From a virus: a DNA stretch of 35,240 nucleotides. The translations under genes and the position numbers were made by a program. The first letter of the stretch is position 1. Every line of letters starts with the position of its first letter. The stretch lies in the UHGV virus genome UHGV-0174372. One strand, 5' to 3'. Below are positions 26,901 to 33,832 of the stretch, one piece after another. The notes beneath the pieces were generated by a model. The model saw only the letters and a program-made list of their open reading frames with translations. It made no database searches and was not told where the DNA came from.

Positions 26901-28676
26901 GTGTTTAAAGATGCAATCAAAAAGCTTAAAGAGAGTGGTAAAATAGTACCCTTTAACCGTGCGATTGCGGAAGGAGTCGGTTATACGCAAGCCAAAGATG
27001 GTATTCATGATCGCGTTCATCGAATCTTGAAACGTGAGCTAGATTACCATCCTGTAGAGAACCCTCGTGTTCCTGAAGGCTTGGCCGTGTTGGGTGTTCG
27101 TTTAATGTCGCCGTTCGAAACTTTTATCTATAAGCTGTCTCGCTCAGAGAGCAGCAGAATGGATAAACGTCGTGGGGTGATGTCTATCGCGAATACCGAT
27201 GCGTATATGGTCATGTCGTCGTTCCGTATTCCTGGAGACTCAAGACCAATCTCAAGACCGATTAACTTGCCATTCATTCGTCGCGGTGGGTTGATGAACT
27301 ATTACGGAACAACGTATCACGTTGCGCCTGTCATTCATCAGCCGGGTATCTGTCGTGAGCACGGCGGGGTGTTTGTTAATTTTGACTTTAAACGTAAAGC
27401 GTCATTAAAATTCTGTAAGCATCCAGTACGTATTTTAGTGAATGGGAAGAAAGAAGAGTTGTTCTTGCCCGGAACAAACAATTTGTTTAAAGCCAAAAAC
27501 GCCACACATCCTGACACGGACGAAAAGCCGTTAATGTACTGGCTATTCGGACGTTATGGATTTAAGGAAGCCATCAAACGTTATACTGGCGTGGATGTGG
27601 AGATATACCCTGCATTCAAAGTACCTGAAATCGATCTCGATAAAAAAGTAGTAATCAGTTCAGGTGAGCCTAAACATAATCGGTCGATTATGTACGTAGT
27701 GACGGTTCCTGCAGAGGCTTTACCAAATCTCGATAAAGCGGGATGGGATCAAAACGAGCACTTATTACTCGTGGCGATTTCTGCATTCTTTAAAGCAGCG
27801 CACTATTATTGCGGAAAGCAAGCGATTAAAAACGGCAACGTTGTTCCTTTACCGCCGTTGTTTACCGCGATTAACGAACTTGCAATGGAGGACGATGTTG
27901 TAAACCTGAATTCCTCCGCAATTTGGCGGGAGATTTTGGGGAGAAGTATTGTTGGACTTAAACCGTCCGATATTGAACTGGCACACAGCATGACGAAACA
28001 CTATACGGAGTGTGAACGCTACGTTAACTCAACATTCCGTGGTGAGTTAATGATGTCAGATCCCGATATCCCGGACGATATGGATATGTTTGATTTCTTC
28101 TGGTACGCGACGAAATTGATGGTGAGAACGCGCCTTACGAAACAAGGTGATATTCCGTCAATGTATGGAAAACGTCTGACCGTAACAGATTACCTGTTAT
28201 TGGGTGAACGTGGCTTTACACCTACCATCGCTGCGATTCGTTTCCACTTGGGACAAACGGAAAATCGAACACCGGAGTCTTGTGCGAACATGATACGCAG
28301 TGCGTTGAATAAAGACATTGTAACCAGCCTGGTATTACGCAACATTACCGGCAATGGCGGTGTAAGTTATTTCAACGCTTCTACTGAGTCTATGGTGCTG
28401 GGGGTTTCAACCCATGCTATCAGCCAGACAGAAACAGAATCAAAACGTAACAGCAAGGGCGGTAAGACGGTTAACCTTAATGACCGGACAAAACATGCCT
28501 CTGCATCTCATCTGGAATGTGGTAACGTGTATTACATTCCGAAGTCATCACCGTTCAAATCGGGTATTCTCAATCCGTATATGAAGACGAACACCCAACT
28601 GGTGATGATACGTAATCCAAAACTCAACGAGTTGATCCAAGCAACCGAAGAAGACATTGCGAAGATTGGCCGTTAA
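26901..28676 (+). CDS. hypothetical phage protein (591 aa), GTG start
   Basis: aaggag lies 6 nt upstream of GTG 26901; the nearby ATG at 26896 is in another frame and gives only a 16-aa peptide. Confidence 0.8.
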   Translation: MFKDAIKKLKESGKIVPFNRAIAEGVGYTQAKDGIHDRVHRILKRELDYHPVENPRVPEGLAVLGVRLMSPFETFIYKLSRSESSRMDKRRGVMSIANTDAYMVMSSFRIPGDSRPISRPINLPFIRRGGLMNYYGTTYHVAPVIHQPGICREHGGVFVNFDFKRKASLKFCKHPVRILVNGKKEELFLPGTNNLFKAKNATHPDTDEKPLMYWLFGRYGFKEAIKRYTGVDVEIYPAFKVPEIDLDKKVVISSGEPKHNRSIMYVVTVPAEALPNLDKAGWDQNEHLLLVAISAFFKAAHYYCGKQAIKNGNVVPLPPLFTAINELAMEDDVVNLNSSAIWREILGRSIVGLKPSDIELAHSMTKHYTECERYVNSTFRGELMMSDPDIPDDMDMFDFFWYATKLMVRTRLTKQGDIPSMYGKRLTVTDYLLLGERGFTPTIAAIRFHLGQTENRTPESCANMIRSALNKDIVTSLVLRNITGNGGVSYFNASTESMVLGVSTHAISQTETESKRNSKGGKTVNLNDRTKHASASHLECGNVYYIPKSSPFKSGILNPYMKTNTQLVMIRNPKLNELIQATEEDIAKIGR

Positions 28677-28715
28677 CGAATTAAATTATAGAAAAGACGT
28701 AACAGGAGTATAATA

Positions 28716-30368
28716 ATGGCAACTGTCAATAAAGACGTAATTCGTAACCACATTTATAACACGATCTCCAGTGGTCGTGATGAACTTTTATCGTATCTTT
28801 GTAATCAAGCACGTGCTGCTGGATTGAATGACGACAAATACATGGATAATGCCGTTACTGTCGCCACGTGGTTTGTATACAACCGTCGTCCAGATAACGA
28901 AACTGCATCGGCGATTCTGGCAACTTTTAAATCGACGCTGTATAGTGACTTACTGGGACGTGGTATGCAGCCACTGGACCCGCGTATTCACAGCCAGCTG
29001 GAACAGGAATTCCGTACGACGAATCAGTATGCGGTGCAAGCTAAACAGCTTATGGCGCAATCGAGCACTTTTGGTGGCCCAGCAATGGGTGGGTCTCCGA
29101 GCTTAGCGATGCCTGCGTCTGGCTTCCCAGGCAGCGGCTATGGTAGTCCACAACCAGCACCAGCGGTACAAGGGGGTTCTATCCCAATGTCAACTTACGA
29201 TCCGCGCACAGCGGCACAGAAGCAATCACCGCAACCGCAAGGTAACTTCGGCCAGCCTGCACAACAACCTGCACAGCAACCCGTGCAACAGGCACAGCCT
29301 AAACCAACTGTTTCGCAGTCTATGGTGGAAGCTAACAAGCCGCGTGAGCTCGACGAGAAAACTATCGAAGAACTTGTCGAACGTTACAATAAACCTATCA
29401 TCGACCATTTCCGGGTAGAAATTGTGGAAGACTATTTAGATCACGAACTTAGAGAACAGATTAAGAAAAATATTCTTACGCCGAAAGAACTCAATGAACG
29501 CATCAAAAATTCACCGTATTCTAGCCATCACAATTGGTCAGAAAAGGTTGACGAAATCATCGATAATGAAGACGTCGATTATTGCGTTTATGATGAAGCG
29601 GATGTGATGGTGAAAACCGAAAGCGAGTATAAATTGTTCCCGATGGTGAGTACGGATTCGAGCAAAACTTACCTTCAAGAATTTTATACTGCCACCCGCC
29701 AGGCAATCGATGGTATCGAAGATATTCGCGATATTGACGATCCGGAAGAAATGCTGAAGCGTACGATCGATGAGGTGTTCCGCATCCGTAAAATGTCTGA
29801 GCGCCTACTGCAATATTTCAATACTCAGGCAGAGGAGCCGGATACACTGAAACAAAGCTGTGTGGAGTTCTGTCAGCAGTTTAACGCAACACTCACTGTT
29901 TTGGTTCATAACGCGATTGCTGTTGCGACAAACTACGGTAAAGGAATTCCAGGTACGAAATTTGTACAATTCGATTGTAACTTAAGCGATCTCGAATACT
30001 TCCGTGACACGCTGTTCCCGCGCACTATCGGTGAAAATGGTGTAACCACGGCTGCGGATTTCTTCCGCGAACTGTGCTTGCTGGTTGCACGTTCTGTTCG
30101 TAAACTGCACTTCCGTCTGAAATCTAACGATCGTGCTATTGAAATTTGCCGCGTAACTTACACCATTCAGCTGCCTGCGGATTACCCGTCTGCAAAAGGA
30201 CGCAATATCGTAGAGATTTCCTCCTTCGGTAATGCGTTTGAACCTATTGTCGGTATCTATGAAGCAATTAACCAACGCGCACCTGAAGCTATTGTGAAGC
30301 TGGCTACCCCGTCGGCATCGTATACACTGCTTAGCAATGGTGAAATTACCGCACCGGTGCGTTACTAA
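28716..30368 (+). CDS. hypothetical phage protein (550 aa) with Q/P/A/G-rich low-complexity linker
   Basis: ATG 28716 with aggag at 7-nt spacing; residues about 114-200 are low complexity (..GSPQPAPAVQGG..PAQQPAQQPVQQAQPKP..). Confidence 0.8.
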   Translation: MATVNKDVIRNHIYNTISSGRDELLSYLCNQARAAGLNDDKYMDNAVTVATWFVYNRRPDNETASAILATFKSTLYSDLLGRGMQPLDPRIHSQLEQEFRTTNQYAVQAKQLMAQSSTFGGPAMGGSPSLAMPASGFPGSGYGSPQPAPAVQGGSIPMSTYDPRTAAQKQSPQPQGNFGQPAQQPAQQPVQQAQPKPTVSQSMVEANKPRELDEKTIEELVERYNKPIIDHFRVEIVEDYLDHELREQIKKNILTPKELNERIKNSPYSSHHNWSEKVDEIIDNEDVDYCVYDEADVMVKTESEYKLFPMVSTDSSKTYLQEFYTATRQAIDGIEDIRDIDDPEEMLKRTIDEVFRIRKMSERLLQYFNTQAEEPDTLKQSCVEFCQQFNATLTVLVHNAIAVATNYGKGIPGTKFVQFDCNLSDLEYFRDTLFPRTIGENGVTTAADFFRELCLLVARSVRKLHFRLKSNDRAIEICRVTYTIQLPADYPSAKGRNIVEISSFGNAFEPIVGIYEAINQRAPEAIVKLATPSASYTLLSNGEITAPVRY

Positions 30369-30748: not shown

Positions 30749-31048
30749 ATGATTAAATATGTCGTTATTAATGTAGACTACGAACGTAGCCCACGTTTTC
30801 GTTTTGAGTTACCTGAAACCAAAGCAACCATGGAGTTTAATCGCTACTTATTAGAGCATTCAAACACAAAAATCAATCACGGTAGATACTGGCTTATCTA
30901 CTATAATGCCCGCAATGAGCTACTGAAAGCCGTCAAGAAATCAGGTCAGTCGGAACTGTTAGTGAAACTGACGGCGTACGATAACGATCCATTAGCAATA
31001 GGAGTGATGCTAGACCTTGCTATTAAGAAAGACGAGATAGCGTGGTGA
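30749..31048 (+). CDS. hypothetical protein (99 aa)
   Basis: ATG 30749 with gaggga at 8-nt spacing; ends at the bidirectional terminator. Confidence 0.6.
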   Translation: MIKYVVINVDYERSPRFRFELPETKATMEFNRYLLEHSNTKINHGRYWLIYYNARNELLKAVKKSGQSELLVKLTAYDNDPLAIGVMLDLAIKKDEIAW

Positions 31049-31062
31049 AAAAAAAGAAAAGC

Positions 31063-31110
31063 TACTCCGACCCCAGAAGGGTCGGAGTAAGCTCGAATTA
31101 TTTTTTTTTG
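31063..31110. terminator. bidirectional intrinsic terminator between convergent genes
   Basis: 10-bp stem tactccgacc/ggtcggagta flanked by an A-run (31048-31062) and a T-run (31098-31109). Confidence 0.7.
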
Positions 31111-31114
31111 CTAC

Positions 31115-33832
31115 TTAGAGAGTTTCATCGGCGTTGTCGTCTGTACCGGTATCCGTCTCGTCTGTGTCTTCAGCAGAAACGTCTTCTTCCGCTGCCGTAT
31201 CGGTTTCCGTCGTTTCATCATCAGACATGTCCAAGTCTTCATCACCGCCCATATCGTCACCACCTAAGTCCTCATCGCCCCCTAAGCCACCGTCGTCTTC
31301 AGAGCCGCCCCCGAAGTCGCTACCGCCGCCGAAGTTATTGGCGTCCTCAGGATTCAAATCAGCCGCTTTTGCTAAGGTTTCAACTTTACCTGTTGTGCGC
31401 TTAGCTAACTGAATCAGCGTCTTCGATGCTGCTGCGATTTCATCAGAAATCATCTTGACGTTTTCACCACGTTTATCTTCGTCGTAGATCAAATCAAACA
31501 GATCGGTTTCGATACCTTGATTACGCAGCCAGTTACGCGTATAGAACGATTTAATCATCGTCTTGAGATCATCAGGCTGCATTTCGATACCTTCGTTCTG
31601 AAGCATATTCGAAATGTCGTCGGTAACAACTAGGTCCGCCAGTTTCTCAATGAACTCATAGCGTTTATCAAACAGATCCGCTTGTGAAGAAGAAGCTGAT
31701 GTGTCTGGTGGTGGTAAGGTGACTTTCATGCCATTGATGAACTTCGCCAGATACTCTGACGTTTGTTTGGTCAAGTCTTCACCTGTTACATTAGGATTTT
31801 GATTGCGAATATATTCAACGATAACACGAATCAGCTCTGCTTGTAACTTAGGAGAAGCTTGCAAACTGTTTGTCACGTAGCGTGTTAACGGCGTAGACAG
31901 GATTTCTTGTTTCTTCACGATTTGTTGAGTCACCAGCAGTGACTTGGAATAAATCTGCGAGGCAAATTCCAGGTTTTCCGGCGTCAAAACAAGATCCGGG
32001 TCTACACACGCGATGTGACAAGTACGACGGAGTAAGTTTTCATCGATTTGTTGATCGGGCACTTTATACTCAGGTGTTGTGTCCGAAACCGACACTTTAT
32101 GACTGGCGTAGTATTCGTTACCCGTCACGTTAAATGCAATCCCGGCATTAGCCCCCATTGACCAAGCGTCATTGATATCACCCCACATCGGTAAACGACG
32201 ATTATAGGAGTTGAGGATATCTGATTTAACCTGGTCAACCGTTTTCTGACCGTTCATATCGTCCGGCGATAACTCGATGTCGTATTGCATGTGACGTGCT
32301 GAGTTCAACACTGAAGAGTTCATCGTTGCGAACAACAGCGCCATCCTGACCGTAGAGATGATAAAGGAACGTTCAGTGATAGACACCCCAATACCATCTT
32401 CGTTAAAGTCCGTTGCAAAGTAGCACAAGTTATTAGCCGGGATATAGACAACCTGTGTGTGACGTTTTGCGAGGTGACGTGCCAGCAGAATACGACCGAA
32501 AGTTTCGGTAATTTTCATGCTGATTTCAGCTCCACCCAATGCCTGGCTTAACGCACGGGTAAATTCGTTCTCAGCAATCTCGCTACAACGGGCACTTAAA
32601 CGGTTGGCGATCTCTGGCGTTATACGAGAGGTATTACCCAAACCCAAATTAGAGCGGTTGATAATACTGTCTGTCATGCCATCGTTGTTAAGGTAGTTCA
32701 TAAAGTTCGCGTCCCCGTAAAGTGAAGAACGTGAGTTGATGAAGTTACCCATATCGTCAATAATGGTCAGAAACCCAATAGGGTTGCGAACGTCGTCGCC
32801 GATAACCAACGGTGCGGTAGACTCAGCAGGCAATAGGCATTCGAAATATTCGATTTGGTTGTTTTCATTCATCGAAATAATCGGAATATCGCCATAAGTC
32901 TGAGTTTTTGGTGTACCTCTGTACGCTTCGTTCAGATCGCCTAAGTTAATGAAGCCTTTTTCAGCCGCATCACGCTGACGATCGTTAAACTGTTGATTAA
33001 CTTCATACGGTGTAGCACCTGTCGGTGTGGCAGGCTTTTCATATGCGGCTTGCTCTAATTGGCCGTAGAGACCAGTACGTGCGTTCTCATGAGCGATTCG
33101 ACGATAAGCATGGGGTAGTAACGTGATACGTGGGTTGTCGGTGATCGAGATGTCCATTTCGAACTTATCTGAGAACATCTTATCATGGTTACTGAAATTG
33201 ATTTTCAGCGACTGCGGTCCTTTAACAGGCCCACGGACACGACTCAGAATAGATTCCACACCCACCCGTTGCCCGTCTTCTTGCCCGTTGATTGGACCGA
33301 GAATACCGAGCTGTTCTTCGAAATAGGCAGCTTGAGAACGACGTACGGATTCGGTAGCGACTTTGGCGTCTAAACCGAACAGCTGGTCAAATCCGTTGTC
33401 CGAGATTATCATCACTGGACTTGCGCCTTTTGTTTTTAACGCGTCGTAAATCCACTGATATAATTTCTTAGGTAATTGACGTACGTTATCATGATAATCA
33501 CGCGTTGGTGCCAGTAGGTCATTACGTAGGTCAATTGGAATGTCTGCGATGTTGTCGTAAATCAACGTGGTGTTGATTAAGTCTTTTGTCGACAGCAAGC
33601 TCGAAGTTGCAATGGTAACAATCGTTTCGAGTTCAGGTAACGCATCAAAGATACGTTCCGCATTTTTGATAGTACGAATACGCGAACTTACAATTCCTGC
33701 AAGTTCCTGACGTGTTGGCGTAGAACCACCCTCGCTACGCGTACCGCGTTGTTGCTGGGGTGCTGGGCCCGTAGTTTTACGAAGAATTGCAGCTACGGCG
33801 GGGTCGCCCGTTAATTTACTAATATCGTCCAT
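31115..33832 (-). CDS. large virion-associated protein (905 aa) with acidic Gly/Asp/Glu-rich C-terminal tail; portal candidate is pure speculation
   Basis: Long ORF with GGAG about 7 nt upstream of the ATG on the minus strand; the C-terminal 70-odd residues read GGGSDFGGGSEDDGGLGGDEDLGGDDMGGDEDLDMSDDETTETDTAAEEDVSAEDTDETDTGTDDNADETL. Confidence 0.85.
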   Translation of the reverse strand: MDDISKLTGDPAVAAILRKTTGPAPQQQRGTRSEGGSTPTRQELAGIVSSRIRTIKNAERIFDALPELETIVTIATSSLLSTKDLINTTLIYDNIADIPIDLRNDLLAPTRDYHDNVRQLPKKLYQWIYDALKTKGASPVMIISDNGFDQLFGLDAKVATESVRRSQAAYFEEQLGILGPINGQEDGQRVGVESILSRVRGPVKGPQSLKINFSNHDKMFSDKFEMDISITDNPRITLLPHAYRRIAHENARTGLYGQLEQAAYEKPATPTGATPYEVNQQFNDRQRDAAEKGFINLGDLNEAYRGTPKTQTYGDIPIISMNENNQIEYFECLLPAESTAPLVIGDDVRNPIGFLTIIDDMGNFINSRSSLYGDANFMNYLNNDGMTDSIINRSNLGLGNTSRITPEIANRLSARCSEIAENEFTRALSQALGGAEISMKITETFGRILLARHLAKRHTQVVYIPANNLCYFATDFNEDGIGVSITERSFIISTVRMALLFATMNSSVLNSARHMQYDIELSPDDMNGQKTVDQVKSDILNSYNRRLPMWGDINDAWSMGANAGIAFNVTGNEYYASHKVSVSDTTPEYKVPDQQIDENLLRRTCHIACVDPDLVLTPENLEFASQIYSKSLLVTQQIVKKQEILSTPLTRYVTNSLQASPKLQAELIRVIVEYIRNQNPNVTGEDLTKQTSEYLAKFINGMKVTLPPPDTSASSSQADLFDKRYEFIEKLADLVVTDDISNMLQNEGIEMQPDDLKTMIKSFYTRNWLRNQGIETDLFDLIYDEDKRGENVKMISDEIAAASKTLIQLAKRTTGKVETLAKAADLNPEDANNFGGGSDFGGGSEDDGGLGGDEDLGGDDMGGDEDLDMSDDETTETDTAAEEDVSAEDTDETDTGTDDNADETL

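Follow-up and report, generated by a model that had tools for sequence, protein, structure and literature searches.

The gene at 31115–33832 (minus strand) of the window, i.e., the complete stretch of 35,240 nucleotides (nt) of the UHGV virus genome UHGV-0174372 analyzed here, encodes a protein of 905 amino acids (aa; plus stop codon), which is the portal protein of an SPN3US/phiKZ-like giant phage, being an orthologue of SPN3US gp81 and a homologue of phiKZ gp129. Its C-terminus (residues 823–905) is an acidic tail without basic residues, which is predicted to be intrinsically disordered and probably acts inside the capsid, mainly by bulk charge and disorder, and possibly also as a flexible arm with a hydrophobic docking tip. 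The protein is the expected one carrying an uncharacterised appendage, and the tail represents an uncharacterised feature of a known portal family rather than a new system.

Identification of the portal protein

Assignment as portal protein is based on synteny with SPN3US, matches to solved portals, a structural match of the predicted fold and conserved protease sites. The 905-aa protein matches phrog_3004 of PHROGs ('virion structural protein, head and packaging') over its full length with E = 0, and its body (residues 1–830) shares 73–74 % identity with SPN3US gp81. Matches to solved structures comprise (i) the phiKZ portal gp129 (PDB 9XPE, 12 chains), for which a search with the sequence alone gave E = 2e-41 and a profile of 40 sequences E = 2.5e-66 (spanning 44–902), (ii) the Goslar portal gp36 (PDB 11ed; 5.5e-25 and 1.4e-51, respectively) and (iii) as third match the 12-chain 'virion structural protein' 36za (7.6e-21 and 4.6e-48, respectively). 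SPN3US gp81 is the portal, was detected in virions by mass spectrometry and is taken to be present in 12 copies per virion (PMC5694885, PMC10052503); it was also detected in tailless heads (PMC5694885, PMC5105663). Likewise, gp129 is the portal of phiKZ (PMC13250141). Scans of the portal and neighbouring proteins against Pfam and NCBIfam gave no match, the family being recognised by PHROGs only.

This points to an annotation gap for phiKZ-like portals, for which Pfam-A and NCBIfam have no model and public records mostly read 'virion structural protein' or 'hypothetical protein'.

The genes surrounding the portal gene correspond one for one in order and size to SPN3US gp73–gp82. A DnaB-like helicase (520 aa, minus strand) and a 174-aa protein are followed by the major capsid protein (764 aa; phrog_3231, E = 1e-280), by proteins of 336, 591, 550, 82 and 99 aa and, on the opposite strand, by the portal protein (905 vs. 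913 aa in SPN3US), with a divergent phrog_3222 gene (gp82-like) located beyond it. The same gene order occurs in three related contigs, and the position of the portal gene relative to the major capsid gene is conserved across the window, SPN3US and these contigs. The orthologues in the Erwinia phages phiEaH2 and Asesino share this neighbourhood as well as the 73–74 % identity over residues 1–830. A sequence-only reading of the window had guessed at an SPN3US-like portal from the location of the gene, five genes downstream of a candidate capsid gene and on the opposite strand. Five genes indeed lie between the two, and the guess is supported by the gp73–gp81 synteny, by 73 % identity to gp81 and by the phiKZ and Goslar matches.

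A single-chain AlphaFold2 model was computed with 40 homologues as input (mean predicted local distance difference test score, pLDDT, 63; predicted template modelling score, pTM, 0.54). Comparison of this model with known folds by Foldseek, a check proposed in the sequence-only reading, retrieved phiKZ gp129 (9xpe_M) with E = 5.2e-22, a probability of 1.00 and a template modelling score of 0.58 on the target. Among the 50 matches listed, phiKZ gp129 alone had E < 0.001; the other 49 were weak (E 0.012 to ~1), all of them being portals (HFTV1, crAss001, N4, T4 and others). The model thus predicts the portal fold, composed of wing, stem, clip and crown, for the 905-aa protein.

Domain boundaries were obtained by transferring the domains of Goslar gp36 through a HMMER alignment and comparing them with the AlphaFold2 model. 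In Goslar gp36 (969 aa), the wing comprises residues 5–519 and 643–777, stem and clip residues 520–642, and the crown residues 778–923 (bioRxiv 10.64898/2026.04.21.720040). Correspondingly, the wing of the window protein would be formed by residues ~250–487 and ~609–708, stem and clip by residues ~488–608 (32009–32371, minus strand), an assignment that fits the helix-strand-helix pattern of the model, and the crown by residues ~709–823 (31364–31708, minus strand; model helices 715–823, the last one being 788–823).

In SPN3US, the prohead protease gp245 cuts gp81 at ATE-161 and AQE-254, thereby removing a propeptide of 254 residues (PMC5694885, PMC10052503, PMC5105663). Both sites are conserved in sequence and position, aligning with VATE-161 and IAHE-249 of the window protein. 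The first (A-T-E, residues 159–161; 33350–33358, minus strand) is situated within the predicted N-terminal propeptide (residues 1–249; 33086–33832, minus strand), while the second (A-H-E, residues 247–249; 33086–33094, minus strand), equivalent to AQE-254, is the predicted maturation cleavage site. Residues 1–249 are therefore presumably cut off by the prohead protease. The Goslar model, in contrast to SPN3US gp81 with its loss of 254 residues, is described as starting at residue 5, the N-terminal region apparently being retained in the virion. Identification of the portal fixes the head-assembly module of this apparently uncultured SPN3US-like phage.

Composition and predicted disorder of the acidic tail

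The sequence-only reading had described the last 70-odd residues as an acidic, disordered tail made almost entirely of G, D, E, T and S. Residues 832–905 (31118–31340, minus strand) read NNFGGGSDFGGGSEDDGGLGGDEDLGGDDMGGDEDLDMSDDETTETDTAAEEDVSAEDTDETDTGTDDNADETL, and the five residue types (D 27 %, G 20 %, E 13.5 %, T 12 %, S 5 %) indeed account for 78 % of these 74 residues vs. 33 % of the remaining protein, with 30 D/E and no K/R/H. The tail is thus real, its true start being located slightly further upstream: the last basic residue is K822, so that the K/R-free segment begins at residue 823 (31366). Delimited in this way, the acidic tail (residues 823–905; 31118–31366, minus strand) contains 33 D/E, 16 G and no K/R/H. 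Given the composition of the body, the probability of at least 33 D/E among these 83 residues is 1.4e-9, and that of no K/R is 1e-4.

Three sub-regions can be distinguished from the sequence: (i) a Gly-rich part (residues 834–869; 31226–31333, minus strand) with hydrophobic-Gly-Gly-acidic repeats (FGGGSD twice, LGGDED, LGGDD, MGGDED and LDM), (ii) a Thr/Asp/Glu-rich part (residues 870–903; 31124–31225, minus strand), and (iii) the C-terminal tip Thr-Leu (31118–31123, minus strand), a hydrophobic last or second-to-last residue being recurrent in the family. The GGxxDD-like repeats noticed earlier accordingly exist at the peptide level. At the DNA level, Tandem Repeats Finder reported no tandem repeat in the tail region, and the only DNA copies are 16–18 nt long with 72–81 % identity, i.e., the repeats are old and degenerate. 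The tail is therefore not a recent slippage product.

Intrinsic disorder of the tail, which the sequence-only reading had assumed, is predicted by two approaches. In the AlphaFold2 model, the tail starts after the last helix (788–823) and has a pLDDT of 26–31 without any secondary structure; in addition, given its mean net charge of 0.40 and its low hydropathy, the tail lies well beyond the charge-hydropathy boundary, in the range of disordered proteins. By a simple polymer estimate, the 83-residue chain has a reach of ~8–12 nm and a contour length of ~30 nm. The charge amounts to ~-33 per chain and ~-400 per dodecamer. Among the possible roles of poly-acidic tails, the sequence-only reading had named DNA mimics and proteins interacting with basic partners. 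A folded DNA mimic of the Ocr or ArdA type is rejected, since the tail lacks predicted structure, is hypervariable and is part of a structural protein; it represents an unfolded appendage of a structural ring. Interaction with basic partners is possible.

Two antisense open reading frames (ORFs) overlapping the tail codons (31042–31404, plus strand, 120 aa; 31134–31412, plus strand, 92 aa) were rejected as genes, as they have no family matches. They are Ser/Pro-rich readings of the GAT/GAA/GGC-rich tail and may represent a trap for gene callers.

Conservation of the tail across portals

The tail was compared across 60 portals, i.e., 54 full-length homologues from a protein collection (41–98 % identity) and six portals from phage records (SPN3US, phiKZ, Goslar, Xanthomonas phage RTH11, Erwinia phage Simmy50 and Halocynthia phage JM-2012), five of the latter sharing only 20–23 % identity with the window protein. 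An acidic tail of 60–110 residues is present in all 60 (20–98 % identity). The last 80 residues contain a median of 30 D/E (range 18–44) and 1 K/R (0–5), compared to 11 and 6, respectively, in a control segment of the same proteins. This conservation is the strongest argument against a chance composition.

The sequence of the tail is far less constant. Identity to SPN3US is 48 % in the tail (with 20 gap columns) vs. 74 % in the body, and the number of glycines in the 60 tails varies from 2 to 27. Length polymorphism among relatives, another check named in the sequence-only reading, is apparent from these gap columns and from variants of 905, 906 and 909 residues within the 90 % cluster, which differ mostly in the tail. 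The ratio of non-synonymous to synonymous substitutions (dN/dS) in the tail is 0.08–0.19 and thus well below 1.

In 45 of the 60 tails (12.6 expected from tail composition), the last or second-to-last residue is hydrophobic, the endings being diverse (ETL, IPL, NVL, PPL, PPV, LPV, LKF, EIG, GVV, GAL, FTF). FGG- or LGGDD-like patterns also occur in the tails of SPN3US, phiKZ, Goslar and RTH11. Hydrophobic-Gly motifs are, however, only 1.3-fold enriched (115 vs. 88.8 expected), mainly due to the closest clade, and a family-wide FG-type motif is therefore not claimed. Taken together, it is strongly supported that selection keeps the charge, the lack of basic residues and usually the hydrophobic tip, but not the sequence.

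The tail of SPN3US gp81 is of the same kind, with FGG motifs followed by a D/G part, a T/E/D part and a hydrophobic end, which is PDNVL as compared to DETL in the window protein. phiKZ gp129 and Goslar gp36 are homologous over almost the full length (~22–23 % identity) with the same predicted fold, and their tails are likewise acidic and Gly/Ser/Thr-rich (28 and 24 D/E, respectively, in the last 80 residues). Of the 896 residues of phiKZ gp129, 633 are modelled in 9xpe_M. The structure described for Goslar stops at residue 923, just before FGGGDDFGD..., leaving the last ~46 acidic residues outside the model (bioRxiv 10.64898/2026.04.21.720040).

Mosaic block comprising the tail codons

The window was compared with two related contigs, L007 (portal P0078) and L009 (portal P0004). 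Between ~30725 and ~31430, nucleotide identity is 51–75 % to L007 and 88–93 % to L009, whereas both flanks are 89–100 % identical to L007 and 73–87 % to L009. Codon statistics display the same reversal: relative to L007, the number of synonymous substitutions per site (dS) in the body is 0.37, while the proportion of synonymous differences (pS) in the tail is 0.74 with 14 gap columns; relative to L009, dS is 1.21 in the body and 0.35 in the tail. The breakpoint lies at the crown–tail transition. Tail codons, terminator and the adjacent gp80-like gene were thus exchanged as one recombination block in this lineage, the tail behaving as an exchangeable module. Co-transfer of the tail with the gp80-like gene may reflect plain linkage.

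The gp80-like gene (30749–31048, plus strand), assigned from ORF prediction, PHROGs and synteny, is convergent with the portal gene and encodes a 99-aa protein of the unannotated family phrog_10389 (isoelectric point, pI, 8.8). The 66-nt space between both genes contains a strong terminator-like hairpin with a stem of 13 base pairs, 7 of them G-C (31062–31090, minus strand; 31052–31090 including the T-run), located 25 nt past the stop codon of the portal gene. Since the hairpin is also preceded by an A9 run, it may act bidirectionally.

Proposed role of the tail

Classical portals (T4 gp20, P22, SPP1, phi29), which are among the weaker Foldseek matches, share the wing/stem/clip/crown plan, but neither a polyacidic disordered tail of 80 residues nor a propeptide of ~250 residues is reported for them. 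P22 has a long helical barrel in place of a disordered acidic tail, and T4 gp20 possesses 8 disordered C-terminal residues. The interior-facing, upper surface of these portals is negative, which is thought to avoid DNA binding, and the portal crown points to the capsid interior (PMC4493910). As the tail follows the interior-facing crown, it should extend into the capsid lumen around the inner channel opening.

Based on these features, the following scenario is favoured as the probable one. Twelve copies of the protein would assemble into a ring at the unique capsid vertex, serving as passage for DNA and, in this group of phages, also for ejection proteins. Following removal of the propeptide (residues 1–249), residues ~250–823 would fold as wing, stem, clip and crown, and residues 823–905 would continue the last crown helix as a disordered polyanion, presumably inside the capsid and retained in the virion. 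The twelve tails could thereby constitute an electrostatic and entropic brush around the inner channel mouth, enlarging the negative upper surface known from other portals and preventing packaged DNA from sticking to the channel entrance or blocking it. The hydrophobic tip could in turn dock on a partner, e.g., a basic or hydrophobic pocket offered by a core or internal head protein or by an adjacent portal subunit. A charge-based function is favoured, because charge is kept in 60 portals while the sequence diverges, and the recurrence of hydrophobic last residues suggests an additional function of the tail as a flexible arm. Retention of the tail agrees with the mass of mature SPN3US gp81 (72.3 kDa, calculated including the tail), which fits its gel position (PMC5694885).

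Several points weigh against this interpretation. The AlphaFold2 model is of moderate quality, and a pure brush would require neither a hydrophobic tip nor hydrophobic-Gly-Gly repeats. One subclade (P0044–P0046, P0051, P0053, P0055, P0056 and P0058; 41–48 % identity) ends Glu-rich with ...EEEVEEKKEDE and without a hydrophobic tip, which may indicate a different partner or no docking function. T4 gp20 works with its short C-terminal disorder (PMC4493910), so that a long tail is no general requirement of portals. A literature search, including the papers on the phiKZ and Goslar portal structures, retrieved no discussion of an acidic portal tail. Peptides of the SPN3US gp81 tail were not found in the supplements of PMC10052503 and PMC5694885, and the tail cannot yield tryptic peptides. 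In phage PhiPA3, the portal is a binding partner of ChmB and is located at the shell of the phage nucleus (PMC10643120). The interaction being assigned to that portal as a whole, this speaks neither for nor against a role of the tail.

The twelve tails would place ~400 negative charges at the site where a genome of 220–280 kb and tens of megadaltons of ejection proteins enter and leave. Should the tail indeed organise this traffic of DNA and protein, it would help to explain protein ejection by giant phages. As an amber-mutant system is available for SPN3US, the role of the tail is directly testable.

Alternative explanations

The main rival, possible but clearly less probable than the charge-based brush, is that the tail serves chiefly as a recruitment arm during prohead assembly. 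By means of the acidic spacer, the tip and the hydrophobic-Gly-Gly repeats, the tail would attach to a basic or hydrophobic site of the prohead protease or of a core, scaffold or ejection protein, thereby nucleating or anchoring the internal protein mass at the portal, with DNA repulsion being secondary. Enrichment of the hydrophobic tip in the family is in favour of this view, as is the overall architecture of the tail. In E. coli SSB (...DFDDDIPF) as well as in T7 gp2.5 and gp4 (both ending in Phe), partner proteins are bound by acidic C-terminal tails, the end of which is hydrophobic or aromatic. The disordered acidic stretch and the hydrophobic end are shared with the window protein (...DETL), and some of its portal relatives end SSB-like with DDDIPL or PDDIPL. 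The resemblance to SSB is an analogy only, since there is neither homology nor an OB fold, and the portal tail is 8–10 times as long as the SSB tip motif and located on a structural ring inside a capsid. SPN3US heads hold >40 MDa of internal proteins, and the portal propeptide was speculated by the SPN3US authors to anchor core proteins (PMC5694885, PMC7411985).

Co-inheritance of the tail with the adjacent, mildly basic gp80-like gene would also agree with such a recruitment function. However, adjacent DNA is expected to share a recombination block without any functional tie, and the gp80-like protein is unpersuasive as the obvious basic partner, its net charge being just +2 despite the pI of 8.8. 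Moreover, the tip does not dock in the single-chain model, and one subclade lacks it.

A further reading, which is considered rather improbable, regards the twelve tails with their hydrophobic tips as a dedicated tether that, in the prohead, holds a particular basic internal component (e.g., virion RNA polymerase, ejection-protein bolus or inner-body end) at the inner portal mouth so that it leaves first on infection, or alternatively as a DNA-like plug of the channel that is displaced by incoming DNA. If true, the tail would organise protein ejection in giant phages, a family-specific role that has so far escaped notice.

Removal by the prohead protease, cation buffering and neutral low complexity are all less likely. 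According to the first of these, the tail would be a C-terminal propeptide acting in the prohead alone. Related proteases cut after A-X-E (SPN3US) or S/A/G-X-E (phiKZ) (PMC5694885), gp245 itself loses a C-terminal piece (PMC10052503), and in the window protein, A-X-E is found three times in the tail (880, 881 and 901), with seven motifs of the type [S/A/G]-X-E. Nevertheless, none of the three A-X-E has a counterpart in SPN3US, the gp81 tail of which is devoid of this motif; the cleavages found in gp81 are N-terminal only, and the gel-fitting mature mass includes the tail (PMC5694885, PMC10052503). Across the 60 tails, A-X-E is neither enriched nor depleted (22 vs. 28.3 ± 5.1 in shuffles) and is not conserved in position. 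The count of [S/A/G]-X-E is 145 vs. 142.7 in shuffles. For both motifs, the counts provide a signal neither for nor against cleavage. Overall, loss of the tail by proteolysis appears very unlikely.

Slightly less probable still is that the tail binds divalent cations or polyamines with low affinity and high capacity, forming a local counter-ion reservoir at the portal in the manner of calsequestrin or RTX-type Gly/Asp repeats. The motifs LGGDED, LGGDD and MGGDED, and GLGGDD arrays in relatives from Erwinia phages, superficially recall calcium-binding GGxGxD. The repeat period is 5–7, however, as compared to 9 in RTX, and Pfam, including its RTX repeat, gave no match, for which reasons RTX-type calcium-binding repeats (nonapeptide GGxGxDxUx) are rejected. 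Furthermore, the tails of many relatives are E/T/S/P-rich and glycine-poor, i.e., the Gly/Asp repeat is not the conserved feature.

A functionless low-complexity product of slippage, tolerated at the protein end, would account for the rapid sequence turnover (14 gap columns relative to a relative with a 97 % identical body) but is hardly credible, considering the lack of recent DNA repeats, the low dN/dS, the avoidance of basic residues although E-to-K and G-to-R are single-base changes, and the persistence of 60–110 acidic, nearly K/R-free residues in 60 portals down to 20 % identity, including those of phiKZ, Goslar, RTH11, Simmy50 and a marine phage.

Neighbouring genes and phage lineage

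The 591-aa protein encoded between the capsid and portal genes (26901–28676, plus strand; GTG start, pI 9.3) matches phrog_2943 ('polymerase', E = 1e-170) and is, by position, the counterpart of SPN3US gp77. The protein probably represents a subunit of the split RNA polymerase that these phages possess. The gp78-like gene (28716–30368, plus strand; phrog_8185) encodes a 550-aa protein with a Gln/Pro/Ala-rich low-complexity stretch around residues 110–200. No other gene of the neighbourhood is as divergent, with products of 536, 550 and 564 aa in relatives and nucleotide identity decreasing to 34–70 % at ~28700–29400.

The starts of the portal gene (33832, minus strand) and of the divergent gp82-like gene (33844, plus strand; phrog_3222, running past the end of the window) are only 11 nt apart. 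Their promoters must therefore be located within neighbouring coding sequence. The same arrangement is found in L007 and L009.

Homologues of the portal are present in ~258 phage records. A phage-record collection contained no portal with at least 80 % identity, the best match sharing 74 % protein identity; as judged from this comparison, the portal belongs to a lineage distinct from the phages represented in that collection. The lineage is known only from contigs of ~220–228 kb encoding near-identical portals, which stem from metagenomes and from isolate assemblies of E. coli, Shigella flexneri, S. sonnei and Salmonella. This occurrence suggests that a giant phage of enterobacteria is widespread and is co-sequenced with the isolates.

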